Positions 3,515 through 48,777 of a stretch of DNA of 64,000 bases are shown here, one piece after another. Origin of the DNA: Clostridia bacterium (lineage in GTDB: Bacteria; Bacillota; Clostridia; UMGS1883). The notes beneath the pieces are model-generated. The model was not told where the DNA came from. It worked only from the letters and a program-made list of their open reading frames with translations, and did not search any database. Location: positions 94-64,093 of the forward strand of contig JAFQQD010000041.1 of assembly GCA_017411435.1 (NCBI GenBank), given 5' to 3'. The position numbers and the translations under genes are program-made. Numbering within the stretch: position 1 is the first letter of the stretch; each line of letters opens with the position of its first letter.

Positions 3515-4076
3515 TTATGATTTCTTCAAGTGAGCGTTTGGGTACATTCAGCACGCCGTTTTCGTCCATAAAATATTTCACATCGCCGTCTGTCATATCG
3601 CATATGGTACTTTCCTGCGCTGCTTCGCCAACTGCAAGGATGTAAATAAGACGAAGATTTTCGGAGATATCAAGAATTTTGCAAAGCTCTTTTCTGTCGA
3701 TGGAGCCGAACCAGCATGTTGCAAGGTTAAGTTCTGTCGCGCGGAGCATCATATTAGTTATTGCAGCACCTGCATCAACACCAAAATCCTCGTTTTTTTT
3801 GATTGTCGAATCACCAAGAATTGCAATATATGCAGTAGGTCTTTCTCCTACTTTGGGTGTACCGTCTTTGAGATACCCTGCCCATTTTGTATGGGGGAAT
3901 ACCTTTTCAACTTCGTTTTCGTCAGTAATCGTTCTGAATTTAAGCGGCTGAAGATTTGCGCCGTATGCAGCAAGACGGGCACAGTCAATAAGCTCGTGCA
4001 GTTCTGCCTTGTCGATTTTTCTTTGTGTAAACTTTCTTATCGTTCTTCTTTTTTCTATCGCTTCGCGTACATTCAT
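3504..4076 (-). CDS. Nitroreductase-family protein (FMN-dependent)
   Basis: N-terminal 'AIEKRRTIRKFTQRKID' nitroreductase signature. Overlaps the tcdA start by 11 nt, suggesting an operon. Confidence 0.7.
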   Translation of the reverse strand: MNVREAIEKRRTIRKFTQRKIDKAELHELIDCARLAAYGANLQPLKFRTITDENEVEKVFPHTKWAGYLKDGTPKVGERPTAYIAILGDSTIKKNEDFGVDAGAAITNMMLRATELNLATCWFGSIDRKELCKILDISENLRLIYILAVGEAAQESTICDMTDGDVKYFMDENGVLNVPKRSLEEIIIED

Positions 4077-5300: not shown

Positions 5301-6185
5301 TTAATTCTGCGCTTGCAAATCTGAAAAATATCTTTCCAAACCCGCAACAATTCCTGCTACCATTTTTTCCTGATACTCGTCTGATTCCATAAGTTTGTCT
5401 TCGTCCGGATTCGTCATAAATCCCATTTCAAGCAAAATAACCGGTACTTTTGACCAGTTAAATCCGGTCATGTCATTTCTGACAGAGATACCTCTGTCCT
5501 GTGCACCTGTTGTCCTGACGAATTCTTCTAAAATCATCGTTCCAGCTTTTCTGCTTTTTTCAATAACTGCGAAATCCTTTATATGTGCCCCACCGGGAAT
5601 AAGCATTGACACTCCACGGACTGCAGTGTTATCGTTTCCATCCGCATGAAGCTTTACAGAAATATCTGCATTTAGGTCGTTTGCAAAGACGGCACGATCA
5701 ATATTTGATACATCACAGTTGTGCACGGTTCTTGTCATATGAACTTGTGCACCCTTTTCCTGGAGTGCCCTTTGCAGTTTCAAAGCAACCATTAAGTTAA
5801 GTTGTTCTTCGGTAATGTTTTTTCCTCTTGTACCGGAAACAAATGCACTTTTTGTTTCTGAGCTGTCCGGTGCAATAGGCTCCTGTTTGGTGTAACTGTT
5901 TACTCCGTGACCGGGGTCAACAACGATTACTTTTCCCAAAAGCACCCCTGTTTTTTCGGGTTTTGTTGTTTCGTCCTCTTTCTTTTCTTCAGGCTTTATA
6001 CTCTCTTCATCCTTTTCAGAAATTTCTTTTTCCGGTTTTTGGGATGTTTCCTTTATATTTTTTTCTTTTTTAACAGTTTCTGTTTTTGGAGTATTGTTTT
6101 TTTCTATTTTTACACCCGACACGCATCCGCTAAACAAAAAAGCAAAAACAAGAATACTTATAAATAATTTTCTCATTATCTCCAC
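5301..6185 (-). CDS. N-acetylmuramoyl-L-alanine amidase (Amidase_3 family) lipoprotein with a K/E-rich linker
   Basis: Lipobox 'LFSGC'. Low-complexity KE-rich spacer. Amidase_3 core 'VIVVDPGHGVNSY...ALKLQRALQEKGAQVHMTR...LHADG'. Confidence 0.75.
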   Translation of the reverse strand: MEIMRKLFISILVFAFLFSGCVSGVKIEKNNTPKTETVKKEKNIKETSQKPEKEISEKDEESIKPEEKKEDETTKPEKTGVLLGKVIVVDPGHGVNSYTKQEPIAPDSSETKSAFVSGTRGKNITEEQLNLMVALKLQRALQEKGAQVHMTRTVHNCDVSNIDRAVFANDLNADISVKLHADGNDNTAVRGVSMLIPGGAHIKDFAVIEKSRKAGTMILEEFVRTTGAQDRGISVRNDMTGFNWSKVPVILLEMGFMTNPDEDKLMESDEYQEKMVAGIVAGLERYFSDLQAQN

Positions 6186-6907
6186 CCCATATATTGCTCA
6201 TACTTAACAAGGAAGTTCTTGTTCGCCTTTTCTACTGTATTAAACGAGTTTTCGTTGAAATACGGATTAGGTTCATACCAATCTTGCTGTGGAAAGTATG
6301 TCTTGTACGGTTCTGTCTTGAATATATAACCATGTCTTGCATAAATTTCGTTACGCATAAACGCGACTTCAGATTTAGTTTTTCCGTATAAATCTGATTC
6401 TGTTATATATACTCTGTCGCTGGGGAAGAAATAACTGGGATTGCTTTCTGTCGATTCTTCCTCTACCGGTACTTCTTCCTCATTTAATTCTTCCGTAGTT
6501 TCCCCTTCAATATCTTGTTTATTTTCTTCAGTTTCTTCTACACTGCTCTCTACTTCTGTTTCGGAAGCGCTGTTTGTTGCACCAAAATTGTAAAAGGCAT
6601 AGCAGAGCACAACTACACAGAGGATAATTGCAATCACAAGGGAAATTATAAGGAGAATTGAGCCGATTCCCGTTTTCTTTTTAACAACTTCTCTGGAATA
6701 AGAGGGTGTAGTATCAAAAACAGGAGTATATTCAGTTTCATATGTAGTGGGATATTCAGTTCTGTATACAGCTGCGTCCTCATTTATAGCCTGACCTTGG
6801 TTATTCACCTTCATACCACAGCTGTTGCAAAAATTTGTTCCCGGTTTTATTTCATTTCCACAATTTGTGCACCTCAAGATTAAAACCTCCCAAGTGTAAA
6901 ATACCAT
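6176..6907 (-). CDS. Zinc-ribbon / single-TM protein with a C-terminal YARHG domain
   Basis: N-terminal 'CTNCGNEIKPGTNFCNSCG' zinc ribbon. TM helix 'ILLIISLVIAIILCVVVLCYAF'. C-terminal 'MRNEIYARHGYIF' YARHG motif. Confidence 0.65.
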   Translation of the reverse strand: MVFYTWEVLILRCTNCGNEIKPGTNFCNSCGMKVNNQGQAINEDAAVYRTEYPTTYETEYTPVFDTTPSYSREVVKKKTGIGSILLIISLVIAIILCVVVLCYAFYNFGATNSASETEVESSVEETEENKQDIEGETTEELNEEEVPVEEESTESNPSYFFPSDRVYITESDLYGKTKSEVAFMRNEIYARHGYIFKTEPYKTYFPQQDWYEPNPYFNENSFNTVEKANKNFLVKYEQYMGWR

Positions 6908-6976: not shown

Positions 6977-9265
6977 TTAAAGTTTGTTTCTTATAATCTT
7001 ACCGCTTGTTGTTTTGGGAAGTGATTCGCGGAATTCAACAATTCTGGGGTATTTATAAGGTGCTGTGTGCTCCTTAACATACATCTGGATTTCCTTTTTG
7101 AGTTCTTCGCTGGGAACAGTGTCCTTAGTCAAAACGATACTTGCCTTAACTACCTGACCACGGATATCATCGGGTGCTGCTGATACGCCACATTCCACAA
7201 CATAGGGAAGTTCCATAATAACGCTTTCGATTTCAAAGGGTCCTATTCTGTAGCCTGATGACTTTATTACATCATCGATACGACCAACATAGAAGTAGAA
7301 GCCGTCCTCATCACGGTAGGCGACATCGCCCGTATGGTAAAGTCCGTCATGCCATACTTCTTTTGTCTTTTCTTCGTCTTTGTAATAACCCTTAAAAAGG
7401 CCGCAAGGCACACGCTCACTTGTGCGGATAACGATTTCGCCGTTTTCACCGACATCAACACTCTTTCCGTCAGGGTCAACGATATCAACATCATAAAGCG
7501 GTACGGGTTTACCCATTGCACCGAGTTTGTATTCTCTGCCGTAAAGGTTACCGATAAGGCAGGTTGTTTCTGTCTGACCGAAGCCTTCCATAATACGAAG
7601 TCCTGTAAGGTTTTTAATCTGCTTATAAACCTCGGGGTTAAGTGCCTCGCCGGCAGTATTTGCGTGCTGAACGGAAGACATATCGTATTTTGATATATCC
7701 TCTTTCATGAGCATTCTGTACATTGTGGGGGGAGCACAGAAGGTTGTGATTCCGTATTCTGAGAAGAGCGGAAGAATATCTGCCGCGTCAAATTTATCAA
7801 AATCATATACGAAAAGCGCAGCCTCGCAGAGCCACTGACCGTAGATTTTACCCCACGCTGCCTTCGCCCAGCCTGTGTCTGAGATTGTAAGATGAAGACC
7901 TTCTGGGTCAACACAGTGCCAGTAGTTTGCAGTGTGGAAATGACCAAGCGGATATGTGTATGAGTGAAGTGCCATCTTGGGATTGCCCGTTGTACCTGAT
8001 GTAAAGTACATAAGCATATCATCACTTCCGCAGGGAGAGTCTTCTTTTCTTTCATATGTGTCGGGGAAATCCTTGTATTCCTCGTCAAAGTTTCTCCATC
8101 CGTCACGAGATCCGCCCACGATGATTTTTTCCTTAAGTGTAGGAGCATTTTTTGCACCGTTTTCGGCACGGTCTGCGATATCATCATCGGCAGTACAGAT
8201 TATAGCGTGTACGCCTGCCGCATTGTAGCGGTATTCGTAGTCATGCTCCTGAAGAAGATATGTTGCCGGAATCGCTACTGCGCCAATCTTATGAAGTGCA
8301 AGTATTGCAATCCAGAACTGATAGTGACGCTTAAGAACAAGCATAACCTTGCTTCCGCGAGTGATACCGATTGATTCAAAATAGTTTGCACAACGCGCTG
8401 ATTCACGCTTGAAGTCAGCAAATGTAAATCTGCGTTCTTCTTTATCCTTTGTAAGATGAAGCATGGCAAGTTTTTCAGGTTTCTTATCCGCAATTGCATC
8501 AATAACATCGAATGCGAAGTTGAACTTGTCCTCGTTCTTAAACGAAATCTTTTCAAGACAGCCGTTTTCATCTTCAACTATGTCTATAAAGTTGTTATAC
8601 ACTCTCTTGTATTCGCGGTGAGGCTTGTAATTAGTCTTAACGATGGCTTTTTCTTCTTCCTGCGAAGCATTTTTCTCGCCATTTAATACTATAGCATAGA
8701 ACTCACAGTCCTGACCTCCAACGGCTACCATACCGTGAGGCGCAGAGCTGTCGTAGTAAATACTGTCGCCAGCGTTCAAGATTTCACTGTGAGCGCCTAC
8801 CTGAACCTTAAGTGAGCCGCTTATTACAATATCAAGCTCCTGTCCATCATGACTTGCAAGCTCAATATCCTTGCGTTCTGCATTTTCATCATAAATAGCG
8901 TGAACATAAAGAGGTTCTGCCACTCTGCCACGGAATGCAGATGCAAGATTGTAATAAACCATACCGTGTGCCTGATCGATAATCGAACCTTCGCCGCTTC
9001 TTGTAACGGTATAGGAACGAAGATTCGAGCTGACGCCCTCAATAATATCAGTTACACCAACCTTGAATGCAAGTGCGCAGCGGTAAATGAAAGCGAAACT
9101 AAGGTCGTGCTTACCTTCCTCACAAGCGACATATTCTTCACGGGAAACGCCTGTAAGCTTTGCCATAGTTTCAACAGAAATACCGTCAATCTGGCGGAGT
9201 TCTTTAATTCTGGCGGCAACTTCACTAATTTTGAAGTCGAGGCCTGTCATCATTGTTTCTTCCAT
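6977..9265 (-). CDS. Fusion protein: XRE HTH + cupin domain + AMP-forming acyl-CoA synthetase/ligase (ANL superfamily)
   Basis: N-terminus 'ISVETMAKLTGVSREEYVACEEG' HTH. Cupin-like 'GQELDIVISGSLKVQVG...HGMVAVGG'. ANL motifs 'YFTSGTTGNPK', 'GYGQTE'-like 'GFGQTETT', and C-terminal 'SGKIIRNKL'. Confidence 0.8.
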   Translation of the reverse strand: MEETMMTGLDFKISEVAARIKELRQIDGISVETMAKLTGVSREEYVACEEGKHDLSFAFIYRCALAFKVGVTDIIEGVSSNLRSYTVTRSGEGSIIDQAHGMVYYNLASAFRGRVAEPLYVHAIYDENAERKDIELASHDGQELDIVISGSLKVQVGAHSEILNAGDSIYYDSSAPHGMVAVGGQDCEFYAIVLNGEKNASQEEEKAIVKTNYKPHREYKRVYNNFIDIVEDENGCLEKISFKNEDKFNFAFDVIDAIADKKPEKLAMLHLTKDKEERRFTFADFKRESARCANYFESIGITRGSKVMLVLKRHYQFWIAILALHKIGAVAIPATYLLQEHDYEYRYNAAGVHAIICTADDDIADRAENGAKNAPTLKEKIIVGGSRDGWRNFDEEYKDFPDTYERKEDSPCGSDDMLMYFTSGTTGNPKMALHSYTYPLGHFHTANYWHCVDPEGLHLTISDTGWAKAAWGKIYGQWLCEAALFVYDFDKFDAADILPLFSEYGITTFCAPPTMYRMLMKEDISKYDMSSVQHANTAGEALNPEVYKQIKNLTGLRIMEGFGQTETTCLIGNLYGREYKLGAMGKPVPLYDVDIVDPDGKSVDVGENGEIVIRTSERVPCGLFKGYYKDEEKTKEVWHDGLYHTGDVAYRDEDGFYFYVGRIDDVIKSSGYRIGPFEIESVIMELPYVVECGVSAAPDDIRGQVVKASIVLTKDTVPSEELKKEIQMYVKEHTAPYKYPRIVEFRESLPKTTSGKIIRNKL

Positions 9266-9269
9266 AGTT

Positions 9270-9572
9270 ACTTCCTCCTGCTTTGGAACATAAAAAAACG
9301 CCCCAAAGAAAACTTAATCCTTGAGACGAGCAATCTACCCGCGGTACCACTCAAATTGCAACGGTTTTCAAACCGCTACCACTTCAGACTCCAACAAGCC
9401 CTATGCACTGACGCAGCACTCTCGGAAAGGGTCTAATAACTTTTTTAAGCTTTCTTCCTTTCAACTCAGGAGCTACAGCATTCTGTTTCACTTTAACACC
9501 TTTCACCGACCGGTGTCTCTCTCAAAAGATTCGCAGATGCACTCTCCATCATCGTTTTTGAATATTTATTAT
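9270..9572 (-). ncRNA. T-box riboswitch leader upstream of the HTH-cupin-AMP-ligase gene
   Basis: Minus-strand RNA contains AAUUUGAGUGGUACCGCGGG (reverse complement of 9338-9357). This matches the T-box consensus AAUUAGGGUGGUACCGCGG with 2 mismatches. It sits ~70 nt before the start codon and is followed by a GC stem plus U7 (…CUUUGGGGCGUUUUUUU), consistent with a terminator/antiterminator. Leader length is ~300 nt from the predicted TSS. The specifier codon is not resolved. Confidence 0.6.
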
Positions 9573-9579
9573 CGTGCAT

Positions 9580-9608
9580 ATAATACCATAAAAAATCCGA
9601 CTTGTCAA
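9580..9608 (-). promoter_or_regulatory. Sigma-70-type promoter driving the T-box leader
   Basis: Minus strand reads TTGACA (reverse complement of 9603-9608), a 17-nt spacer, then TATTAT (reverse complement of 9580-9585). Confidence 0.6.
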
Positions 9609-9629
9609 CTATTTTTTCCGTTAATCCGA

Positions 9630-9664
9630 TGGCTAAAATAAGCACCTCAACCGAGGTGCTTATT
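9630..9664 (-). terminator. Terminator hairpin after the GH3 gene
   Basis: Inverted repeat ataagcacctc/gaggtgcttat just 3' of the gene that ends at 9668, with flanking T/A runs. Confidence 0.55.
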
Positions 9665-9667
9665 TTA

Positions 9668-10863: not shown

Positions 10864-11766
10864 CTATTCTTCCTTCTCAATAATAAATGCTATTTTGTTG
10901 CGATAATTGTTTCCGGGATAATCTGCTGATATATCATTAGGAGCATCATTAAAATACCATTTCCCACCACTCTTAAGGGCCATAAGGTATCTTTCTTGCA
11001 CACCCTTATAGCTAAGAGAAGGCTCCCTTCCATTTTTTGTCACGAGCCAGTTTGCATACGGAAGATATTCACTTCCGTCAAGGCAATATACATCGTTCCA
11101 GTCTTCGCCTGTTCTTTTTATGCCCATCCAGAATATAACGAGTCCCTGCTTGTCGGCCTCCGCGCACAATCTGTTAAACTCTTCTTCTGAATTTGCGACA
11201 GCTATATGTCCGCCCTGCTCGCTTGCCAATTCGCGCGCACTTTCCCATGTAACGGGATAATAGGTTTTATACACGCTGTAAGTCTTTACGGGATTTTTTA
11301 CAGGCTTTTCTTTCTCTTCTTCGTATTCTGGTTCATTATTTGTCTGGGTTTCTTCAACCGTTTGGTCATCAGAAGAAGTAAAAATTACACCGTTTGCCTT
11401 CAGAACAATTAAAGATGCCAAAGTAACAACTGCAACGGCTATAATTATAGAAAGGAGTATTATAATGTTCCTGTTAAAGCTGGAGTTTTTCATACGGGAC
11501 CTTTCACTGCACTGAGGGCACAGTTTATATCCATCCGCCACTGAGCAGCCGCATATCATGCAGGATTGACTGCCAGGCTGAGAATAGTCGTCATAAAACT
11601 GCGTATTTTGTGAATTATACTGATAAGCGGTGTTGGGGTAGTTTGACGAATAATTTGAAGATTGTTGTCCCGCACCGTTTCCCTGCTGTACATATCCACA
11701 ATTGGGACAAAACGCGTAGTCTTCCTTTAACACGCTTCCGCAATTTGGGCAATTCATTGCATTCAC
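10864..11766 (-). CDS. Zinc-ribbon / single-TM protein with an extracellular C-type-lectin-like domain
   Basis: Two CxxC zinc-ribbon pairs ('CPNCG...CPNCG', 'CMICG...CPQC'). TM helix 'IIILLSIIIAVAVVTLASLIVL'. C-terminal 'GGHIAVANSEEEFNRL...IFWMGIKR...WNDVYCLDGSEYLPYANW' resembles a CTLD. Confidence 0.55.
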   Translation of the reverse strand: MNAMNCPNCGSVLKEDYAFCPNCGYVQQGNGAGQQSSNYSSNYPNTAYQYNSQNTQFYDDYSQPGSQSCMICGCSVADGYKLCPQCSERSRMKNSSFNRNIIILLSIIIAVAVVTLASLIVLKANGVIFTSSDDQTVEETQTNNEPEYEEEKEKPVKNPVKTYSVYKTYYPVTWESARELASEQGGHIAVANSEEEFNRLCAEADKQGLVIFWMGIKRTGEDWNDVYCLDGSEYLPYANWLVTKNGREPSLSYKGVQERYLMALKSGGKWYFNDAPNDISADYPGNNYRNKIAFIIEKEE

Positions 11767-26806: not shown

Positions 26807-26880
26807 GCGGGTGTAGTTCATTGGTAGAACACCAGCCTTCCAAGCTGGATAGGTGGGTTCGATTCCCATCACCCGCTCCA
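26807..26880 (+). tRNA. tRNA-Gly (anticodon UCC)
   Basis: Cloverleaf with acceptor gcgggtg/cacccgc, anticodon loop cuUCCaa and encoded CCA. Near-identical to Bacillus tRNA-Gly(UCC). Confidence 0.9.
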
Positions 26881-26902
26881 TTTTTTGCCACAAAATATAT
26901 GT

Positions 26903-26979
<77 letters not shown>

Positions 26980-26984
26980 TATGT

Positions 26985-27062
26985 GGTGGGTATAGCTCAG
27001 TTGGTTAGAGCGCTAGATTGTGGCTCTAGAGGCCGAGGGTTCGAGTCCCTCTATCCACCCCA
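26985..27062 (+). tRNA. tRNA-His (anticodon GUG) with an encoded G-1
   Basis: Extra 5' G. Anticodon stem-loop ctaga-ttGTGgc-tctag. T-arm ggttcgagtcc. CCA encoded. Confidence 0.85.
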
Positions 27063-27100
27063 CTTATCCACCTGAGTTACACTCAGCATTGTAACTATGT

Positions 27101-27177
27101 TGGGCTGTAGCCAAGTCGGTTAAGGCACCAGACTTTGACTCTGGCAGTCGCAGGTTCAAGTCCTGCCAGCCCAGCCA
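27101..27177 (+). tRNA. tRNA-Gln (anticodon UUG)
   Basis: U1-A72 acceptor tgggctg/cagccca, anticodon loop cuUUGac, CCA encoded. Confidence 0.85.
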
Positions 27178-27181
27178 ATAC

Positions 27182-27257
27182 GGGCCATTAGCTCAGTCGG
27201 CAGAGCACTTGACTTTTAATCAAGTTGTCCGGGGTTCGAATCTCCGATGGCTCACCA
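27182..27257 (+). tRNA. tRNA-Lys (anticodon UUU)
   Basis: Acceptor gggccat/atggctc, anticodon loop cuUUUaa, T-arm ggttcgaatc, CCA encoded. Confidence 0.85.
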
Positions 27258-31326: not shown

Positions 31327-34300
31327 TTAGTTGTAACCTATTTCAAAACCCTTTGCCACATTCTGAAGTTTTGTTGTGTCGGTTTCAGTAAAGCCGATAT
31401 TGTCAGCGATGAAGATAAGTCTTCCATCTTCGTACCACATAACCTTCTTTCCAAGGGCTTCTGCGGTTGCGCGAAGAGGAATCATTGTACGGTTATTCAC
31501 AAGCTTTATTTCAGCTTCGGATTCCTTGACCTCGCCGTTGGCGGTATAGTTTTTTTCACCGATTTTGAATGAAACAACCTTATCTCCGCTTGTTATGGTT
31601 GCGGTATAAGTTTCTTCATCCCATTCAACCTGTGCACCAAATGCTTCGGATACAAAACGAAGAGGAATCATCGTTCTGTCGTTTTCGATGTAAGGTGCAA
31701 CATCGGGGATTTCAAGTTCCTCCGTTACATTATATGCCTTCTGTGAATCCACTTTCAGAAGAAGAAGATTATCAGAATAGTCATAGAAGGTACGGTTGAA
31801 TTCAAGAAGTTCCTTATCCGTCTTTACAACTCCGATTACGGGAGCGACAAGAGTGCCTTCTCCGCTGCCCTTGATTGTAACTACGATATCGCCCGTTCGG
31901 CTGAAAGATGCACATTCATAAGCACCGAGGTATACCCAGCCCTTTTTACCCTGCGAAAAGTCAACGGTCTTTACTACTTCTGTCTTACCACCTGTTGTCG
32001 GTGAATATGCCACTACTGAAATAGTCGCGCTCTTATCACCGTTTTCAATGGGTTCGTGGTAGTAGTAGGTCATATAGGGCACTTCTGTATCGGTTACTGT
32101 GTAGGTAAGCGATGCGTCAGCATCTTCCGAAACCTTGATATATGAACCGTCTGCCGTTGTGTTGCCCGTAACTGTCCAGATGCCTGTCTTTTCCGCAATT
32201 TTGGAGTCGGGGTTATAGATTGTCTTTGCCTTACCCATTTTATCACCCTCGTAGACAAATTCGCCTGCGGGGATACTGTCGGCTCCCTTAAATGCAACAC
32301 ACGCACCGTCACTGCCGGGGCGAACTACCATATAGCCATCGCCGAAGTTGGGAGCTTCTGTATCGAGCTCATTGAACACTGTGTTTCCGTTAACCTTAAG
32401 GAACACATTTACGCCATCGGGCATATCAACGCAACCCATTTCAATGTCAACCCATTCATTTTCCTTGATGTAGTCGTTGGGATATGTTGCCATAATCCCT
32501 GTCTTTGTTGCCGCGGGGTTATATTTCTGGAATTCTATCTGTGTGGGTTTGATAACGATAAGATAGTTTCGAACTGCCTTGTTATAGGAAATAACAGATG
32601 GGTCATTCTGCTTGAGCGAAATACCTGTCCAGCCGTTGAAGTTAATCTTCATCTTGAAATGCTTGGACAAATATCCGGGGTTTATGTCGTCAAGGTATGC
32701 CCAGCCGTTTCCGTGTGATTCAATATTTACAGTGCCATCAGTATTTGTAACGGCTATTGTATCATCGGAAGTGAGCCATTCACCGCCTACATTAAGAGCA
32801 CCGTGTCCCTTATTTTTATAGCCGAAAACCCCTGACTGCAGATTCTGAAGCCTTGTAACAGTTTCCTGAATTTCCTCCTGACTGCCTGTTTTACTGTCGT
32901 AAATATCCTTTGCATTTGAAAGAATCGTGTCAATCTGCGCAAGTGAATCAGCACTGTACTGACCTAATCCATCACCGATATTTGCAGAAACTGTTTCTTT
33001 AAGCGCTTCAACATTTTTGATTTCTTCGTTGAGCAAGCCCTTTTCAAGAACATCCTCGGCAGTTGTCCTGAACATATAGGTTTCGCCTTCACTTGCCCAC
33101 TTGTTTCCAAGCTGTCTGCCCTGATTTATAGCCCATACCTTGTAGTAATAAACTGTATCGTTCTTAAGGTCGGGAAGCTCTACAACATTGTAAAGCGATT
33201 TACCCGAAGCAACAACATTTTTAAGCTCGGGGTCTGTTGCTACTACATATTCATAGATATCGGCATATCTTGCCTCTTCCCATTTGATATATGCGGTATT
33301 TCGGATAACATCCATCTGTCCGTTTGTGGGATAAAGAAGACGGAAAGGAGTTTCGGGCTTTTCAACCTTCATAATTTCAGGCTGGAAACCAATCTTGTCC
33401 ATAGAGAAATTATCTTCGTTTAAGAATGTATCGGGGAAACCGAATTCCCTGACATATTCGCGTTTGAGTCGGTAGTCGTGATTAGCACTATCTACAAATA
33501 CGCCGTAGTCATCGGAAATACGGTTATTTTTAACACTACCGTTGTCAATTGCTACCTGACTGATGTTGTTTCTGTTAACATCTACCGAAAGGTTGTTTTC
33601 AAAGACATTACCTTTCATAAGTAAATACATATCGTCCTTATCAAGCTGAGGCTTGTATGTAGCGATTGCGGGATATTTTTCAAGAAGTGCGGCAGAAACA
33701 CCGGCATCAACAGATTTATAAGCCGTTTCGTGAATTTTCGAGTTGCGGTCTACTGCGTGAACACCTGTGTTTGAGTTTACTATGATATTTTCGCAATAGT
33801 AGCTGTCCGCACCTACGAAAAGGTTACCTGATGTACTGTTCTTTCCACCGGGAACGATAATGTTATGATGCGCAATCTGTCCTGACTGCCAGTCGTCCCA
33901 ATAGATACCCTGAACATTATATCTTGCATCGAAAATAGGAGCGAAGTCGTGAAGATAGTTATAGGAGATTGTATTTCCCGGTTCGCGAAGGCTTCTTCCC
34001 TCGTAGATAACGCCCATATCGGCAGTATCGTTTGAAAGCGAGTATATTTCGTTATATCTGAATATATTTTCAACACCGCCGTAGAAAATACCTTGTCCGT
34101 TAGGCTGTCCGTGAATGACATTGTTTTCGACAACATCTCCGATTGTTGTATTTACAGAGCCACGGCCAAGTATAATCGCAACCTTTGACTGCATCCATCC
34201 GCCAAGTCCCCAGCGGTAGAAGTGACAGTTGGAAACACGATTGTTACCTGGGGTAAGTGTTTCAATATCGCCACCGCCCTGATAGTTGATTGCAGACACA

Positions 34301-35469
34301 TTGATATCATAGATAGTGCACGCTTCTACAAGAGTATTCTTTGAATCCTTGGCATAAACTGCCTGATGAAGATTGCTCATGGTTGCGTTGCGTACTGTAA
34401 TGTTATTTGATTTATAGATGCTGTAACCATATCCGCTTACATTACCGCTTACGCTGATTCCGTCAAAAGTAATGTATGACGCACCGTCTGTCTTGATATA
34501 TGTTTTTGAATGAGTCGAAACCTCAAGAATATCTGTCTCTTTCAATTCATAAGGCGGATAGTAGTAGAGCTTCTTTGTATTTACATCCACAAAATATTCG
34601 CCGGGAGAATCAATTTCTTCAAGAAGATTTTCAATATACCATCTGTGGCCGGGTTTCACACCATAAATCGAAGCTTTTGCAAGGTATATTTCTTTCTTCT
34701 GGGCATTTACTCCGCCAAGCTTGACAGAGTCCTTTGCGTATTCTGTTCCAAGGTAGCCGCGGACAATCGCCTGGTCTGCCTTACCCCATCTTTCAGGACG
34801 GAGAGAATCGTATTTCCATATACCCTTTTTACCCTTGTCGCCGCCTGAAACATTTTCGCCCGGCTGAACAACAGTTATAATATCCACAAAGCCAACATTG
34901 GGCCATTTTGCAATTTCCTGCATTTTGCCGTTGAGATGAATGAAGGGATACATCTGATGCTCACGGGGGTCGGTAGTTCTTACAGCAACATCAAACATTG
35001 CCATATCAAGATTATAACCCTCAAGGTCAAGCACCATTACCTTGTCACGGCTTTCGGGAGATATGCGCTGAAGAATTTCCGCATCTGAAAGAGGTGCAAA
35101 ATCCTTAATGTTAAGTTTAGTGTAATTAGACACCAGAACTTCCCCGTCACCTGCCGCGCGATAGATAACGGGGTTATTTTTGCTACCTGAATCCTCCGCT
35201 GTGAAAACGAGAGTGTCTTCCTGCGGATATGTGCCTGCGTGAATTAAAACCTCAACAGTTTTATTTTTGTGGTCTATTCCGCGCAGATATTGTTGTGCCC
35301 TTGCTATTGTTTTAAAAGGAGCTTTTTCGCTTCCTGTTCCCTCTTCACCTGCGTTTGCTGAAACATAAATTACAATCTTGCCATCAGCTGCAACCGCCGA
35401 AAAAGGAAGTACTGAAAAGACCATTACAACTGCAAGAAGCAGTGCAATAAATTTAACTTTTTTCATCAT
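31327..35469 (-). CDS. Large secreted right-handed parallel beta-helix (pectin-lyase-fold) protein with an Fn3-like domain and two C-terminal Cu-amine-oxidase-N1-like domains (paralogue 1 of 3)
   Basis: Signal peptide 'MMKKVKFIALLLAVVMVFSVLPFSAVAADG'. PbH1-like repeats ('NATMSNLHQAVY', 'HHNIIVPGGKNSTSGNLFVGADSYYCENIIVNS'). Fn3-like 'PETPFRLLYPTNGQMDVIRNTAYIKWE...VYYYKVWA'. C-terminal 'IPLRFVSEAFGAQVEWD' and 'MIPLRATAEALGKKVMWY'. Confidence 0.75.
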   Translation of the reverse strand: MMKKVKFIALLLAVVMVFSVLPFSAVAADGKIVIYVSANAGEEGTGSEKAPFKTIARAQQYLRGIDHKNKTVEVLIHAGTYPQEDTLVFTAEDSGSKNNPVIYRAAGDGEVLVSNYTKLNIKDFAPLSDAEILQRISPESRDKVMVLDLEGYNLDMAMFDVAVRTTDPREHQMYPFIHLNGKMQEIAKWPNVGFVDIITVVQPGENVSGGDKGKKGIWKYDSLRPERWGKADQAIVRGYLGTEYAKDSVKLGGVNAQKKEIYLAKASIYGVKPGHRWYIENLLEEIDSPGEYFVDVNTKKLYYYPPYELKETDILEVSTHSKTYIKTDGASYITFDGISVSGNVSGYGYSIYKSNNITVRNATMSNLHQAVYAKDSKNTLVEACTIYDINVSAINYQGGGDIETLTPGNNRVSNCHFYRWGLGGWMQSKVAIILGRGSVNTTIGDVVENNVIHGQPNGQGIFYGGVENIFRYNEIYSLSNDTADMGVIYEGRSLREPGNTISYNYLHDFAPIFDARYNVQGIYWDDWQSGQIAHHNIIVPGGKNSTSGNLFVGADSYYCENIIVNSNTGVHAVDRNSKIHETAYKSVDAGVSAALLEKYPAIATYKPQLDKDDMYLLMKGNVFENNLSVDVNRNNISQVAIDNGSVKNNRISDDYGVFVDSANHDYRLKREYVREFGFPDTFLNEDNFSMDKIGFQPEIMKVEKPETPFRLLYPTNGQMDVIRNTAYIKWEEARYADIYEYVVATDPELKNVVASGKSLYNVVELPDLKNDTVYYYKVWAINQGRQLGNKWASEGETYMFRTTAEDVLEKGLLNEEIKNVEALKETVSANIGDGLGQYSADSLAQIDTILSNAKDIYDSKTGSQEEIQETVTRLQNLQSGVFGYKNKGHGALNVGGEWLTSDDTIAVTNTDGTVNIESHGNGWAYLDDINPGYLSKHFKMKINFNGWTGISLKQNDPSVISYNKAVRNYLIVIKPTQIEFQKYNPAATKTGIMATYPNDYIKENEWVDIEMGCVDMPDGVNVFLKVNGNTVFNELDTEAPNFGDGYMVVRPGSDGACVAFKGADSIPAGEFVYEGDKMGKAKTIYNPDSKIAEKTGIWTVTGNTTADGSYIKVSEDADASLTYTVTDTEVPYMTYYYHEPIENGDKSATISVVAYSPTTGGKTEVVKTVDFSQGKKGWVYLGAYECASFSRTGDIVVTIKGSGEGTLVAPVIGVVKTDKELLEFNRTFYDYSDNLLLLKVDSQKAYNVTEELEIPDVAPYIENDRTMIPLRFVSEAFGAQVEWDEETYTATITSGDKVVSFKIGEKNYTANGEVKESEAEIKLVNNRTMIPLRATAEALGKKVMWYEDGRLIFIADNIGFTETDTTKLQNVAKGFEIGYN

Positions 35470-35570: not shown

Positions 35571-38500
35571 TTAATTAAAACCCTTGTCAAAGCCTTTTGC
35601 GGCGTTCTGAAGTTTTGCTGTATCACTTTCTGCAAAACCGAAGTTATCTGCGATAAAAATCAATCTCGCATCGCCGTACCACATAACCTTCTTGCCAAGA
35701 GCTTCAGCAGTAGCACGAAGCGGAATCATTGTTCTGCCGTTTACAAGTTTGGCCTCTGTTTCAGATTCGCGAACTTCACCGTTAGCTGTGTAATTCTTGT
35801 TGCCAAGAGTAAACGCAACAACATTGCTACCGTTTGTGATAGTTGCTGTCTGTGTTTCTGCGTTCCAATCTACCTGTGCGCCAAATGCTTCAGATACGAA
35901 ACGGAGGGGTACCATTGTTCTGCCGTTTTCGATGTAAGGAGCTGTATCGGGAATTGCAAGCTCATCCTGAACCTTGTACGCCTTCTGAGAGTCTATCTTC
36001 ATAAGAAGAAGATTTTCAGAGTAGTCGTAGAAGGTACGGTTGAACTCGAGAAGTTCCTTGTCAGCCCTTACAGTAGCAACTACAGGTGCAACAAGTGTTC
36101 CCTGACCGCTGCCCTCGATTGTGAAGACGATATCGCCCGTCTTACTGTGCGATGCACACTCGTAAGTGCCGAGGTATACCCAGCCCTTTTCACCCTGTGA
36201 GAAGTCAATCTTACGGACAACATTCGTCTTGCCACCGTCTGTGGGAGAGTATGCTACCATTGAGATGGTTGCATTCGGGTCGCCGCCTGCTATGGGTTCG
36301 TGGTAATAATATGTCTTGTAAGGTACTTCTGTATCGGTTACTGTGTATGTAACACTTGCGGTTGGGTCAACAGAAGTCCATATGGTTGAACCATCTGCAG
36401 TTTTATCATCGCTGTTTGTCCATACGCCTGTCTTTACTGCATTCTTGGATTCAAGGTTATAAATTGTCTTTGCCTGGTCCATTGAAGAAGCTCCGCTGTA
36501 TACGAATTCTTCTGTGGGAACTGATGATGCCTCCTGAAGTTCAACAACTGCGCCTTCGCCACCGGGGCGAATTACGAAGTAGCCGTCACCGAAGCAGGGA
36601 GTTTCAGTATCATATTCGTTGAGTACTATGTTTCCGTTAACCTTGAGGAAGATATTTACACCACCGGGAACATCGACAGAGCCGAATTCAACATCAACCC
36701 ATTCGTCTTCCCTGATATACTGGTTGGGATATGTTGTTATAACGCCAGTCGTTGCGGCTGCGGGGTTTTTCTTCTGGAACTCAATCTGTTCCGGCTTGAT
36801 TACTAAAAAGTAACTCTTAAGCCCTGTGTCATAAATTTTGGATTCGGGATTACTCTGCTTGATGGAAATACCTGTCCAGCCGTTATAGTTAATCTTCATT
36901 CTGAAGTGCTTAACTGTATATCCCGGTGTCGGTTCGTTAAGATAAGCCCAGCCATCGCTGAATGATTCAAGCTTGAGGGTGTTGCCCGTTTTGGAAGCGC
37001 TTATGCTTGTATCGTTTACAAGCCATGTGCCGTCTGTGATTTTGATATTTTCGTGACCTGCACGCTTGTAGCCGGTTATACCTTCCTGGAATAACTGAAG
37101 GTCAGCAACACTATTCTGAATTTCTTCCTGACTTCCTGTTGTCTTGTTGGCAATGCGCTGTGCGTTTGAAAGTTTGTCGTCAATTGCTGTAAGTACTTCG
37201 GGTTTATACTGACCTAATGCATCGCCTACCAGAGGAGCAACCTTTTCTCTGAGCGCCTTGATATTCTTTATCTCTTCCTTGAGCATTTCCGTTTCAAGAA
37301 CATCTGTCGCAGTTGTCTTGAACATATAGGGAACGCCCTCGCTTGCCCAGGTGTTACCCATCTGTCTGGTAACATTCTTCGCCCAAACCTTGTAGTAGTA
37401 AACAGTATTACCCTGAAGGTCGGGAAGTTCAACCAGATTATAAAGTGTAGTACCCGAAGCAACAACATTTTTGAGGTCGGGGTCTGTTGCCACTACATAC
37501 TCGTACATATCGGCATATCTTGCCGCTTCCCACTTTATGTAGGCAGTATTTCTGATAACATTTGTCTGTCCGTTTGTCGGGTAAAGAAGACGGAATGGTG
37601 TTTCGGGTTTTTCAAGCTTCATAATCTCGGGCTGAACACCGATTTTGTCCATAGAGAAATTGTTTTCATTAAGAACAGTATCGGGGAAACCAAACTGTTT
37701 AACAGCTTCGCTTGTAAGACGGTAGTCGTGATTAGCCGCGTCAACGAATACACCGTAATCGTCTGAAATCTGGTTGTTATTGAACTTTCCGTTCTTGATA
37801 TGTGTATCGTGGAATCTGTTCGAGTTAACATCTACCGAGAGGTTATTTTCAAACACATTGTTTGCGCAAAGAAGCATCATGCCATTCTTGTCAAGTTCTT
37901 CTTTGTACTCACGAATTCTGGGATATTTTTCAAGAATTGCAGGAGAATTAGCCTTATGAGTATCCTTAGTCGTGTTATATGCAGTAGAGTGAATCTCTTT
38001 TTCACGGTCTGTAGCACGAACACCGATATCGGAGTTAACAACTATGTTTTCACAGTAGTAGCTGTCCGCACCAACAAAAAGGTTACCTGCAGTACGGTTC
38101 TTTGTACCCGGTACGATGATATTATGATGCGCGTTCTGACCACTCATCCAGTCGTCCCAGTAAATTGCCTGAACCTGATATCTTGCTTCAAAGATTGCGC
38201 CGTAATCGTGAATGTAGTTATACGAAATTTCGTTACCCCATTCGTTGAGGGTACGACCTGCGTAGATAACGCCACAGTCAGCGGCATCGTGCGCTATTGA
38301 TGCAATTTCGTTATATCTTATCTGATTTTCAAGGCCGCCGAAGTGGAGGCCCTGACCGCTGGGCTGTCCGTGGATAAGGTTGTTTTCAACAATATCGCCG
38401 ATTGTTGTATTATATGAACTACGGCCAATGTTTACAGCGTGGTTACCCCAGAAGTTGTTTCTTGTTGCCCAACGGTAGAAGTGACAGTTTGCAACACGGT

Positions 38501-39734
38501 TGTTACCGGGGGTAATTGTCTGAATATCACCGCCGCCCTTCATACGGATACCGTAGTCGCCGATTTCCTGAATTGTACAAGCCTCAACAAGAGTATTTTT
38601 TGAATCCTCTATAAATACTGAGTGCTGACCGATATTCTGAATGGTAGCGTTACGGATTGTGATATGGTCGGAATTTTTAATGTGGAATGCGTAATTTGAA
38701 AGACTGTCGTATACATTTATTCCGTCAAATGTAATGTAGGATGCACCTTCAAATTTAACATAAGTTTTTGAGTGTGTGCTGAGTGTAAGCTTATCCGTTG
38801 TCTTAAGCTTGTAAGGCGGATACCAGTAAAGCTTCTTGGTATTTGCATCAATGAAGAATTCACCCGGTGAGTCAATTTCTTCAAGAAGATTATCTACATA
38901 CCATCTGTGACCGGGCTTTACCCCGTAAGAGGTTCCTCGTGCGAGAACGATTGTCTTTTTCTCAGTATTGACACTGTCAAGCGGCACATGGTCCATATTG
39001 TATTCACTGCCGATATAGCCGTGAACTATTGCCTGGTCTGCCTTTTCCCATCTTTCAGGGCGGAGGTTGTTATACTTCCATTCGCCTTTCTTCTTTACAG
39101 AAGCAGTGGTAGGGGTTGCATCACCGGCTTCTACTACTGTAGTAATAGGCTGGAATCCGATATTGGGCCATCTTGCAAGGTCCTGTTTTTTATCATTAAG
39201 ATAAATAGTAACAGGTGTTGCATTATAGCGTGTATCAGCAATTCTTGAGCCATAGTTAAGTGCAGAAAAGTCAATTTTATACTCCGAAAGGTCAAGTTCA
39301 CCGACCTTACTCTGTGCCTCGGCAGGAATCCTTGTAAGTACTGCCTTATCAGTGACAGGTTTGAATTCTGCAAGGTTAAGAGTAACCGCGTTGGTCATTC
39401 TTACTTCACCGTCACCTGCTGCGCGGTATATTACAGGATATTTTTCATTACCTGAGTCTTCTTGTGTGAAAGTGAGTGTCAGTTCCTGCGGATAAATACC
39501 TGCGTGGACAATGACCTCAGCATGTTTTTTTCTGTGGTCTCTGGAGCGCAGAAAAGTCTGTGCTGCCTCAATTGTCTTAAATGGTTTTGCTTCGCTGCCG
39601 TCACCTGCAAATTTTGCATTGGCGTCAACATGAACTATAATCTTGTCCTCTTCAGCAGCCATTGCTGCAAAAGGAAGCAAAGAGAATACCATGCACAAAG
39701 CAAGAAGCATTGCTGTAATTCTAACTTTTCTCAT
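35571..39734 (-). CDS. Large secreted beta-helix/Fn3/Cu-amine-oxidase-N1-like protein (paralogue 2 of 3)
   Basis: 1387 aa with the same architecture as 31327..35469. N- and C-terminal ~150 aa are near-identical among the three paralogues. The termini are ~80% identical at the nucleotide level. Confidence 0.75.
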   Translation of the reverse strand: MRKVRITAMLLALCMVFSLLPFAAMAAEEDKIIVHVDANAKFAGDGSEAKPFKTIEAAQTFLRSRDHRKKHAEVIVHAGIYPQELTLTFTQEDSGNEKYPVIYRAAGDGEVRMTNAVTLNLAEFKPVTDKAVLTRIPAEAQSKVGELDLSEYKIDFSALNYGSRIADTRYNATPVTIYLNDKKQDLARWPNIGFQPITTVVEAGDATPTTASVKKKGEWKYNNLRPERWEKADQAIVHGYIGSEYNMDHVPLDSVNTEKKTIVLARGTSYGVKPGHRWYVDNLLEEIDSPGEFFIDANTKKLYWYPPYKLKTTDKLTLSTHSKTYVKFEGASYITFDGINVYDSLSNYAFHIKNSDHITIRNATIQNIGQHSVFIEDSKNTLVEACTIQEIGDYGIRMKGGGDIQTITPGNNRVANCHFYRWATRNNFWGNHAVNIGRSSYNTTIGDIVENNLIHGQPSGQGLHFGGLENQIRYNEIASIAHDAADCGVIYAGRTLNEWGNEISYNYIHDYGAIFEARYQVQAIYWDDWMSGQNAHHNIIVPGTKNRTAGNLFVGADSYYCENIVVNSDIGVRATDREKEIHSTAYNTTKDTHKANSPAILEKYPRIREYKEELDKNGMMLLCANNVFENNLSVDVNSNRFHDTHIKNGKFNNNQISDDYGVFVDAANHDYRLTSEAVKQFGFPDTVLNENNFSMDKIGVQPEIMKLEKPETPFRLLYPTNGQTNVIRNTAYIKWEAARYADMYEYVVATDPDLKNVVASGTTLYNLVELPDLQGNTVYYYKVWAKNVTRQMGNTWASEGVPYMFKTTATDVLETEMLKEEIKNIKALREKVAPLVGDALGQYKPEVLTAIDDKLSNAQRIANKTTGSQEEIQNSVADLQLFQEGITGYKRAGHENIKITDGTWLVNDTSISASKTGNTLKLESFSDGWAYLNEPTPGYTVKHFRMKINYNGWTGISIKQSNPESKIYDTGLKSYFLVIKPEQIEFQKKNPAAATTGVITTYPNQYIREDEWVDVEFGSVDVPGGVNIFLKVNGNIVLNEYDTETPCFGDGYFVIRPGGEGAVVELQEASSVPTEEFVYSGASSMDQAKTIYNLESKNAVKTGVWTNSDDKTADGSTIWTSVDPTASVTYTVTDTEVPYKTYYYHEPIAGGDPNATISMVAYSPTDGGKTNVVRKIDFSQGEKGWVYLGTYECASHSKTGDIVFTIEGSGQGTLVAPVVATVRADKELLEFNRTFYDYSENLLLMKIDSQKAYKVQDELAIPDTAPYIENGRTMVPLRFVSEAFGAQVDWNAETQTATITNGSNVVAFTLGNKNYTANGEVRESETEAKLVNGRTMIPLRATAEALGKKVMWYGDARLIFIADNFGFAESDTAKLQNAAKGFDKGFN

Positions 39735-45636: not shown

Positions 45637-48600
45637 TTATTCATCCCAGCTGTTGCTGTTGTAAACGATCATATTGGGAATATTTGCAAATCGAGAGTTG
45701 AACATAACTCTTGAACAGTCTGTACCGAAGTCTTCGTATGTCTTAACATCGTTGATTGATCCTGTCTTAACAACAATATCACCATCTACGAAGTTAACAA
45801 CTACAATCTTGGAAACTGACCAAACCTCTTCCTTATATCTTGTGTCGAAGTCTGCAGGATTTTCAGGATAGCCATTCTGGATTACATCCCAACCGGTAAG
45901 TTTAACAACGCCTTCACGAATCTTGAGGGGGTAACACTGGAAGAAACGGAATGAACCTGATGAGAAGCTTCTACCTGAAGCAAGGTTCATCGCTGTACCA
46001 CCACCGTAAGCAAAGGGATTCTTGTTGTATTGGGGATGAGTTTCGTCAGCTTCAACCCAACGGTCAACACCTGGGATGACACCGGGAGTCTGGGGCTCGC
46101 CTGTACCATCAACACCGTTTTCGTCAAATACTACACGAACATGTTCAACAATACCGTTTTCGTCCATAGCAACACGAACGATATCACCTACTTCAATATC
46201 TTCTCTGTCAAAGGGAACCTTAACCCAACCGAGGTTTGTGTTAGAGGAGTTTACTCTTACATCAGTTTCTGCTTCTGTATCGAATACAGCGTCGTCCTTG
46301 ATGTAGAGGTTAGCATCTGAAATAGAGCCCTGCCTATACTTCTTTGCCTTATAGATTGTACCAAGAGTATCATCGGGGAATCTGCCGCCGCCGATTTCTG
46401 TGATGATGTATACATCGGGTACACCGTAGCTTGTATCCATACCTGTTTCACCTGAAGGAAGGTCAACAACAGCATATTTTACTGACATACCGCCTTCGAT
46501 ATCTGTGTATGCTCTCAAAACATGATACTGACCTGCATCATCAGAAGTGTGTGTGGGAAGGTTCTTGATTGTACCTGCAGAGAATGCGTTTTCATCGTCT
46601 ACTCTTCTCTTTGTGCTGTCAACCATAATAATCTTTGATGCAGCAGGAGCAGCAACATAACCGCCGAATGAGTTTGAATTCTGTCTGAGGTAACCCTTTT
46701 CACTGTCACCGCTGTCGTTTGAATGAACAAGGTGAAGCTTACCTGTAATCTTTGTGTTTGCATCAAGAATGGGAAGCTCGATATAGTTGATTGCATCTTC
46801 ATCGTTTACTGTGTAACGGAACATACCATCAATCTTGTTTGACTCTGCATTGTATTCTGCCGAATATGCTTCAACAAATTCCTTTGCAGTCATCTTTGAT
46901 TCCACGCCGTCGTGGTTACTTACTCGAAGTGTTTCAGCAAGCTCATAGAGAGTATGTGCACCGCCCATTGTGTATGTCTGGATAGCATACCTTCTGTTTG
47001 TGGGTGAACCGGACAAGCTGCCGATTTCAAGGATGTAACCAATCTGAAGACCTGCCTTTTCCTGAGGAACGGCAAATGCTACACGACCGTAAGAGTTCAG
47101 ATAAAGAGTAAATGACTTGTTAAGTGCAAAATCTTCTCTCAGGCTGTAGTCCATAAATGCCTGTGTAACCTCGAATTCATTTTCAGTGTCAGAGATGTAG
47201 GTCTTTCCTTTATCTTCTGTGATTGAGTTAATTGTGAATTCTGAAATTGCACGGTTTGTTACATAGAATGTAAATATGTTACCGCGGCGGATAACATCAA
47301 GAACAGAGTTCTTCTGAATCATTGTGAAGTCTGCCTTGTTACCGTCTGCATCGTAGATATTAACGATGTACTTGGGGTCTTCGAAATCAAGCTCGATGAT
47401 ATCATCTTCGCTTGCATATGTGCCAGAACGAAGTATGTTGTAAATCTTTGTGTTGTCGCTGTCAACATTACCAACAACCCATGTTTCGAACTCATCGATT
47501 ACAACGATTTTCTTGTAAAGGTCATCTCTTGTTTCGATTACATAAATCTTACCGTAAGCGTTATTTGTAACAAAGTCGTTGAAGAAAGATTCGTTGTAAG
47601 AATCAAGTACTGCGCCATTGTAAATTACATAAGCATTTGCGTAGTTAACCTTCTTAGCTATCTTGTTAACCTTGTAGTTAAGTGTATCGCCGGTTGCGCT
47701 TGTAAGTGTTTCAATATCGATTTCTGTAACCTCATCGCGACCGTTAAGCTCTACATATACTGCAACACCTGAATCGTCTGACTTGTAGTTTGTGTACCAG
47801 CAAGTAACATCACGACCGATGAACTTTGAAAACTCCTTGCCCTCTTCCACTCTGATGAGAGTATCTGCTACAACGATTTTTGCACCTTCGTATGTGCTTT
47901 CGCCAACGAGTGTTGTGTAACCGCTGTCTGTCATAAGACCATCAATTTTATTAAGTCCGAGGATTTCCGAAGCGAATGTGCGGTTTTCGTCATAAGCAAA
48001 GCTGATGTCGCCGTTTTCGCCGTAAGATGTTTCTACAAGCATCTGTGCATCCATAGTATTCTTAAGGATAACTGCGATTGCACCACGCTTACAGATTTGT
48101 CCTGCGTTAGAGCCTTTAGTAAGGTTAAGGCGCTGAGCAAACTTGTTATAACCTACGGGGTAACCGCCGTTAGCCTCAGCAACAGCCTTATAACCAAGCA
48201 TAACCATAAATGTCTTTATAACCTGGTCAGTTGTTACTTCGCCATCGGGGTCGAAGGTTGTTTCAGATGTACCGTTCATGATACCAAGGTCACGGATGTA
48301 GTTGATTGCATCGTATGCCCAGTGAGATTCAGAAACATCTTCAAAATCTTTTGTTTCAACAACCTCCACAACGGGAGCGTCACTGCCTGAACCTGTGTCA
48401 ACGATAAGCTGGTCTTCGTTTGAATCATCGCCGAAGAATGAATCGCTCCAGATAGATTCATCGAAGAAGCCGCCTTCAGAATCGCTGCCAGCTCCGCTGC
48501 CGTTTGCGTATGAGAGGATGTTATTAATCAACTGTGCAAATTCCGCACGCGTCATATTCTTCTCAAGGTTTGAGTTGCCCTTGTCATCTCCAACCATAAT

Positions 48601-48747: not shown

Positions 48748-48777
48748 AATCTTTTAACTCCTAACTGTATGTCCGTA

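Follow-up and report, generated by a model that had tools for sequence, protein, structure and literature searches.

The T-box leader and its target gene

The DNA analysed here is a 64-kb stretch of a Clostridia bacterium (GenBank contig JAFQQD010000041.1), in the following called the window. On its minus strand lies a gene coding for 762 amino acids (aa; 6977..9265), whose Pfam domains and catalytic motifs indicate a fusion of a helix-turn-helix (HTH) domain, a cupin and an AMP-forming ligase. This gene is preceded by a T-box leader (9319..9561), and the promoter and the elements of the leader described in this section are located on the minus strand as well. A preliminary description of the locus, made from the sequence alone, had proposed a T-box riboswitch in front of the fusion gene on the grounds of an antiterminator-like sequence about 70 nucleotides (nt) upstream of the start codon, a stem followed by a U7 tract, and a near-consensus promoter. 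All of these elements were found again in our analysis, which additionally assigned the specifier codon that had been left unread.

The T-box covariance model of Rfam (RF00230) matches the positions 9561..9319 over its full length (model positions 1-219, all 219) with a score of 92.3 bits. Searched alone, the leader gave an E-value of 5.8e-21; within the whole 64-kb window, the E-value was 7.4e-19. A default Rfam scan of the whole window reported only five transfer RNAs (tRNAs), and the T-box surfaced under an E-value threshold. The default scan missed it because 92.3 bits falls 0.7 bit short of the gathering score of RF00230 (93 bits), which is an operational threshold and not a structural feature.

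Transcription can be assigned to a sigma-70-type promoter (9580..9608), which consists of a -35 box TTGACA (9608-9603), a spacer of 17 nt and a -10 box TATTAT (9585-9580) with a TG extension; a consensus scan matched 11 of the 12 positions. A separate hairpin (9634..9667) closes the upstream GH3 gene, and the leader therefore has its own promoter. This hairpin comprises 15 pairs with A and T runs on its flanks, such that bidirectional termination is possible. Stem I (9464..9555) contains the K-turn, in which GAUGAU (9553-9548) is opposed to UGA (9468-9466), followed by the specifier loop, the AGAGA bulge and the distal loop GGUCGGUGAAA (9511-9501); K-turn and distal loop were located by means of the Rfam alignment. 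The specifier codon is GUA (valine, 9474..9476); the purine G9473 comes next, and then the basal helix CUCC. Stem II (9426..9461, AAAGG with CCUUU) and Stem III (9358..9379) are supported by both the Rfam alignment and covariation.

The antiterminator helix (9322..9353) exposes the bulge UGGUACC (9349-9343), which carries the T-box sequence; its UGGU (9349-9346) is predicted to pair with the ACCA at the 3' end of the tRNA. The 20-mer AATTTGAGTGGTACCGCGGG, which corresponds to the antiterminator-like sequence of the preliminary description, occupies 9357..9338, 73 nt 5' of the ATG at 9265. It occurs as a single copy in the window, and no occurrence was expected according to 100 shuffles, even if two mismatches were allowed. 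The intrinsic terminator (9292..9328) is composed of an 11-pair hairpin (9328-9299) and a U7 tract (T7 in the DNA, 9298-9292). The seven nucleotides 9328-9322 constitute the 5' arm of the terminator and likewise the 3' strand of the antiterminator; because they serve both structures, terminator and antiterminator are mutually exclusive. A minimum free energy fold of the whole leader was uninformative (z = -2.0), and neither of the alternative states was cleanly obtained. Reading the sequence further, we found the ribosome-binding site AGGAGG (9274..9279) 8 nt 5' of the ATG.

Conservation and covariation among relatives

In order to assess the conservation of the leader, related loci were collected by scanning one genome per GTDB species, which gave at least 575 stretches encoding homologues of the 762-aa protein. 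The best 80 of these (L001-L080) share 97-66% identity with the protein and all derive from metagenome-assembled genomes of gut or rumen Clostridia; three further loci (L081-L083) were fetched independently. Of the 80 loci, 77 have the core GAGTGGTACC(G/A)CG upstream of the gene; for two of the remaining three, there is no upstream DNA. An alignment of 95 leaders was generated, which comprises 78 orthologous leaders and 17 leaders of an isoleucine type described below, and the Rfam structure of the window leader was projected onto it. A promoter pair of the type described above occurs within 70 nt upstream of Stem I in 93 of these leaders.

The predicted pair positions are paired in 92.3% of the cases, compared to 36-46% with the 3' partners slid. 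For 28 of the 42 pairs, compensatory changes were observed on both sides, and none of 500 shuffles reached the observed values. The basal helices of Stem I are 100% paired and show compensatory changes; the distal helix is 92% paired, an example being GACACC/GGUGUU in the window versus GACGCC/GGCGUU in L001. Stem II is 95.8% paired and Stem III 94.6%, with changes on both sides in all pairs (5/5 and 7/7, respectively). The bulge UGGUACC is invariant in 95/95 leaders and is flanked by antiterminator helices that are 97-100% paired; AGAGA and GGUNNGUGNAA of Stem I show little or no variation. Pairing in the terminator amounts to 97.3%, as compared to 36-59% with the partners slid. Owing to this conservation of pairing, covariation and terminator across the leaders, the window element is a real, selected T-box. 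The RNA is of the standard class I transcriptional type.

Several orthologous leaders among those sampled reach or exceed the gathering score, namely those of L080 (100.6 bits), L065 (96.4), L035 (95.3), L046 and L061 (both 93.4). The leaders of L081 (4057-4325), L082 (5659-5935) and L083 (5663-5929), together with the isoleucine-type leaders found there, obtain 66-80 bits. The sub-threshold score of the window leader is a matter of where the cut-off lies and is no argument against the RNA, and standard annotation will systematically miss low-scoring leaders of this T-box subgroup.

Specifier codon

We defined the specifier as the three bases preceding the purine that abuts the basal helix and read it directly at first, and then from the alignment columns. 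GUA is present in 76 of the 78 orthologous leaders (the other two have CUG), and the flanking bases are variable. For the specifier plus the next base, the columns of the 95 leaders contain GUAG (71), GUAA (5), AUCA (12), AUCC (3), AUCG (2) and CUGA (2). The middle U is invariant in 95/95 leaders, as is expected if the three columns represent a codon for valine, isoleucine or leucine. GCU, which precedes GUA in the window and would specify alanine, was considered as an alternative specifier. It is replaced by AUU, UUU, GAU and others in relatives, and because it is not conserved, alanine was excluded. Judging from the bulge UGGU, the tRNA should have A as its discriminator base, which is the case for the tRNAs for valine, isoleucine and leucine. 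A tRNA gene adjoining the leader of L073 was examined as a candidate for tRNA-Val and proved to be a tRNA-Gln.

The target protein

Pfam confirmed the proposed fusion: HTH_19, an XRE-type HTH domain, covers aa 18-78 (nt 9214-9032), Cupin_2 aa 134-192 (nt 8866-8690, 42.8 bits), AMP-binding (PF00501) aa 258-628 (nt 8494-7382, 214 bits) and AMP-binding_C (PF13193) aa 678-756 (nt 7234-6998, 73 bits). The catalytic motifs of the ligase are intact (TSGTTGNPK at aa 422, YHTGD at 643, SGK at 754-756). Judged by these domains and motifs, the target is an AMP-forming acyl-coenzyme A (CoA) synthetase of the ANL superfamily.

The closest match of the ligase part is MacsMa of Methanosarcina acetivorans (PDB 3ETC), with a sequence identity of 50.8% over 516 residues (E-value 2.9e-180). 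MacsMa prefers 2-methylbutyrate, and its pocket depends on Trp259 (PMC10455477); this tryptophan aligns to W471 of the window protein and is conserved. The best NCBIfam model is MbcS (NF047394), which scores 427.2 bits over aa 247-762. MbcS was shown experimentally to activate 2-methylbutyrate and isobutyrate selectively (PMC10026030), and the window protein is related to MbcS and probably functions in a similar way. The preliminary description had assumed that the enzyme activates an amino acid or an amino-acid-derived acid. The second option was retained, as homology leads to branched short-chain carboxylic acids; the first one was abandoned.

Paralogues and residue 467

Many loci of the more distant relatives contain the fusion gene twice: directly upstream of the first copy and on the same strand lies another one with its own T-box. 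The specifier of this upstream copy is AUC (isoleucine) in 22 leaders, i.e. in all 17 aligned ones, in L047, in the contig-edge leader of L058 and in L081-L083. In L046 and L048 (both 3661-3971), the downstream copy reads CUG (leucine) and not GUA. The Leu class rests on these two genomes, as a search with the Leu-type protein gave one close cluster only (P0121).

A comparison of the Val and Ile types identified residue 467 as the sole position in the ligase domain that separates them: It is alanine in 75/75 Val-type and glycine in 17/17 Ile-type proteins. The pairing of AUC with Gly and of GUA with Ala recurs in the independently fetched loci L081, L082 and L083. In the window, Ala467 is encoded at 7865..7867 (minus strand) within the motif DTGW-A-K-AAW, and the residue tracks the specifier such that Ala occurs with Val and Leu, and Gly with Ile. 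In MacsMa, the corresponding residue of the motif (DTGW-x-K-xxW-G) is Gly255, with the pocket residue Trp259 four positions further on. Since MacsMa and the Ile-type proteins have glycine at this site and the window protein has alanine, the latter probably prefers the smaller isobutyrate. The predicted substrates are thus isobutyrate for the GUA/Ala type and 2-methylbutyrate for the AUC/Gly type.

Operon context in relatives

The genes following the ligase give a further indication of its role. In 23 loci (20 out of the 80, plus L081-L083), the Val-type or Leu-type copy is followed by a gene set for 2-ketoisovalerate:ferredoxin oxidoreductase (VOR), which is encoded on the same strand. The gene order after the ligase is a 220-aa P-loop protein, a ferredoxin of about 70 aa with two [4Fe-4S] clusters, a VorB alpha subunit, a beta subunit binding thiamine pyrophosphate, and a gamma subunit. 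The start of the P-loop gene ranges from 4 nt upstream to 101 nt downstream of the ligase stop codon. The alpha subunit passes the NCBIfam model for 3-methyl-2-oxobutanoate dehydrogenase subunit VorB with 531.8 bits (cut-off 399). Three loci were examined further downstream, and in two of them (L081 and L083) the gene of the branched-chain aminotransferase IlvE comes next; its product reaches 475 bits with the model NF009897 (cut-off 307) and 397 bits with ilvE_II (cut-off 250). The Val T-box of L083 is preceded by a perfect promoter, and the first terminator predicted on the plus strand from there lies just after ilvE. According to these family assignments, ligase, VOR and IlvE make up a complete predicted route from the acid via the acyl-CoA and the 2-oxoacid to the amino acid. 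With Ile and Leu T-box paralogues and with VOR and IlvE as neighbours, the unusual target becomes a logical amino-acid-supply gene.

Two further observations were made in these loci. The conserved 220-aa P-loop protein is always located between the ligase and the VOR genes in L040-L083 (e.g. L083 8349-9017, L046 6277-6942); it has a weak CbiA/ParA-like Pfam match, belongs to no NCBIfam family, and its gene often overlaps the stop codon of the ligase gene. In addition, Leu (CUC) T-boxes precede LeuA-like genes (HMGL-like plus LeuA_dimer) that adjoin the ligase or the VOR cluster in L039 (T-box at about 5900-6170) and L083 (13148-13381, 111.6 bits).

Proposed mechanism and alternative interpretations

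We consider it likely that a tRNA-Val-specific, transcription-attenuating T-box controls a branched short-chain acyl-CoA synthetase, such that valine starvation leads to the activation of isobutyrate and its reductive carboxylation to valine. Substrate and pathway are inferred from homology, from the pocket residue that follows the specifier codon and from the operon context in relatives; the steps of read-through are inferred from the canonical T-box anatomy. Transcription would start about 10 nt before Stem I, and the anticodon of tRNA-Val would bind the GUA displayed in Stem I. An uncharged tRNA would pair with UGGU through its free ACCA end and thereby stabilise the antiterminator, such that RNA polymerase would enter the gene. 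With charged tRNA, the terminator (9328-9299 plus U7) would form instead. The enzyme would most likely make isobutyryl-CoA from isobutyrate, ATP and CoA; VOR would carboxylate this product reductively to 2-ketoisovalerate, which a branched-chain aminotransferase would convert to valine. Valine starvation would thus turn on a valine salvage from isobutyrate, which is abundant in gut and rumen. A biosynthetic and not a catabolic direction is favoured because a T-box induces its gene under starvation. That ruminococci convert isovalerate to leucine by carboxylation is a classical finding (Allison 1962, cited in PMC7356843).

Several observations weigh against this interpretation. With respect to the RNA, the window leader stays below the gathering score of RF00230 by the 0.7 bit mentioned above, L077 (66% identity) truly lacks a T-box although upstream DNA is present, and no tRNA-Val gene is found in the 64-kb window. 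The region 3500-4000 of L077 contains a sigma-70-like promoter and a leader of about 180 nt, in which no Rfam family was detected at the gathering threshold. As regards the substrate, the score of 427 bits is half of the MbcS equivalog cut-off of 850, and the protein is not an MbcS equivalog. The Ala/Gly switch at residue 467 is a correlation, and its presumed location in the pocket rests on the proximity to Trp259 and on the homologous position in Salmonella Acs (Val310), which we take to be a pocket residue. Moreover, both Leu-type copies carry Ala467 as does the Val type; because of this shared alanine, residue 467 alone cannot encode three specificities. With respect to the pathway, a tblastn search detected no homologue of VOR or of the P-loop protein in the window, and Pfam assigned no gene of branched-chain amino acid metabolism among 39 of the 41 window open reading frames (ORFs) of at least 110 aa. 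The closer relatives L001-L039 likewise have no VOR set beside the ligase gene. Because the pathway partners are absent from the window and from the loci of closer relatives, they are presumed for the source genome.

A more far-reaching scheme can be drawn, in which tRNA-gated salvage in gut and rumen Clostridia would operate with one T-box and one pocket-tuned synthetase each for valine, isoleucine and sometimes leucine, the VOR and IlvE enzymes would be shared, and each synthetase would additionally act, by way of its HTH-cupin module, as a DNA-binding 'trigger enzyme' that senses a ligand and reports the supply of branched acids to other genes. We regard this scheme as a conceivable, speculative extension. 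If the trigger-enzyme part were true, expression would be under two inputs, namely tRNA charging at the level of RNA and the concentration of the acid or acyl-CoA at the level of protein.

The same T-box and chemistry could also serve a different purpose: isobutyryl-CoA may be a primer of branched-chain fatty acids. The primer normally comes from valine, and induction at low valine would spare the scarce amino acid for protein. Ruminococci also put branched acids into lipids, which counts for this use of the product. So do the missing VOR genes beside the gene in the window and its closest relatives, and the fact that MbcS, the best-scoring curated family, supplies primers to FabH (PMC10026030). 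A primer route, however, needs neither the VOR genes adjoining in 23 loci nor the IlvE gene found in two of the three loci examined that far. Three tRNA sensors on three paralogues fit the balancing of amino acids better than lipid homeostasis; moreover, in the survey PMC2494555, specifier and function agreed for all T-box targets that had been characterised experimentally. We therefore regard priming as an unlikely explanation of the system; lipid-primer use and amino-acid salvage can coexist.

In a further interpretation, the key product would be a transcription factor: under valine starvation, the T-box would raise the amount of an HTH-cupin protein that binds DNA and controls other genes, and the ligase domain would serve chiefly for sensing, much as the adenylating enzyme BirA is also a repressor. 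The mean majority frequencies of HTH (0.74) and cupin (0.78) are about as high as that of the N-terminal ligase domain (0.79), the fusion (at least the cupin and both ligase domains) is kept in 240/240 clusters among the matches listed, and stand-alone HTH-cupin regulators exist, of which 1y9q shows a weak similarity (E-value 2e-4). The HTH-cupin module is under selection, and it may sense a ligand or bind DNA. However, the catalytic motifs of the ligase are intact, the ligase C-terminal domain shows the highest conservation within the protein, HTH_19 barely exceeds its Pfam cut-off (30.5 versus 30.2 bits), and no conserved operator-like palindrome was found near the promoters of the family leaders. 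A regulatory role would add to the enzymatic one and not replace it, and we hold a protein acting mainly as a transcription factor to be quite unlikely.

It is very improbable that the ligase activates an amino acid or another non-fatty acid, for instance in order to supply an aminoacyl-adenylate to a secondary product. In favour of this, amino-acid-adenylating domains occur within the ANL superfamily, and T-boxes are mostly found with enzymes that handle amino acids. The best matches of the window protein, however, are all acyl- or aryl-CoA synthetases (MacsMa, 4-hydroxybutyrate-CoA ligase, ACSM2A, Acs), and no family of the non-ribosomal peptide synthetase or DltA type ranks high. The tryptophan of the MacsMa pocket is kept as W471, and no carrier-protein or condensation genes are located nearby, neither in the window nor in the loci of relatives. 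Finally, a chance match of the 20-mer in a leader that is no riboswitch, for which only the sub-threshold score in the default scan could be adduced, has a practically negligible probability and was refuted by the E-value of 5.8e-21 and no expected chance occurrence, by the conservation in 77/80 loci, by the extensive covariation and by orthologous leaders above the cut-off.

Comparison with known systems

The leader shares with class I T-boxes, such as those of Bacillus subtilis tyrS and glyQS, of valS and of the ilv-leu operon, the K-turn, the specifier followed by a purine, the AGAGA bulge and the distal-loop platform, as well as Stems II and III and an antiterminator bulge UGGUACC that competes with a U-tract terminator. 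The predicted logic is also the same, in that uncharged cognate tRNA induces a gene restoring the supply of the respective amino acid. The difference is the target, which belongs neither to the aminoacyl-tRNA synthetases nor to the canonical biosynthetic genes or transporters. The preliminary description had called it an unusual member of the T-box regulon, which agrees with the fact that CoA ligases are not mentioned as targets in two T-box regulon surveys (PMC2494555 among them). A full-text literature search, whose coverage leaves out most subscription journals, found no report of a T-box controlling an acyl-CoA synthetase.

Among the enzymes, MacsMa has the Trp259 motif in common with the window protein and prefers a small branched acid; it differs in having neither the HTH-cupin extension nor a known T-box, and in having glycine in place of the alanine. 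MbcS of Staphylococcus aureus activates environmental 2-methylbutyrate and isobutyrate and feeds fatty-acid primers. The terms T-box, riboswitch, cupin and helix-turn-helix, by which the 2026 MbcS paper was searched, are not mentioned in it. With BirA and the 'trigger enzymes', the window protein has in common that an adenylate-forming enzyme carries an N-terminal HTH; there is no sequence relationship to BirA, and in the window protein the cupin sits between the HTH and the enzyme.

It has been established since the 1960s that rumen cellulolytic bacteria need branched volatile fatty acids and carboxylate them to branched-chain amino acids. This Allison-Bryant pathway, which involves VOR, resembles the system proposed here with respect to the predicted chemistry and the habitat, and relatives encode VorB-type subunits after the T-box ligase; in the window genome, the partner genes are not near the ligase. 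In the literature searched, we found no gene assigned to the activation step of the branched acids, and nothing on its regulation. Target and pathway assignment appear to be undescribed so far; the RNA mechanism is ordinary.

The T-box gives this enzyme family a physiological direction and each paralogue a predicted substrate. Together, the ligase, the P-loop protein, VOR and IlvE are a candidate gene set for the classical use of branched acids in gut and rumen Clostridia, which is of relevance to the cross-feeding of amino acids in gut communities and to supplementing ruminant feed with branched acids. For the T-box regulon, the ligases constitute a new class of targets, and the Rfam cut-off misses real members of this subgroup.

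Surroundings of the gene in the window

The window gene, which is of the Val/Ala type, stands alone and is followed by a zinc-ribbon/YARHG gene, an amidase gene, rimM and trmD. Downstream of it, no terminator was predicted, and the next gene has a weak promoter-like site in front. In close relatives such as L010, rimM and trmD directly follow the ligase gene, which suggests an insertion of the YARHG and amidase genes in the lineage of the window. Two proteins with an N-terminal zinc ribbon flank the locus (6176-6907 and 10864-11766, minus strand), one of which also has YARHG. The 39 ORFs analysed by Pfam encode housekeeping, sugar-related and large surface proteins.

The five tRNA genes of the window form a group on the plus strand (26807-27257) and comprise Gly(UCC), Arg(UCU), His(GUG), Gln(UUG) and Lys(UUU). 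On the minus strand, three paralogues of about 1380-1390 aa with C-terminal Cu_amine_oxidN1, one of them with a beta-helix, are encoded at 31327-35469, 35571-39734 and 50556-54728. Two proteins with SLH domains lie between these paralogues, and 45637-50559 (minus strand) also belongs to this part of the window, which is a large island of cell-surface proteins.

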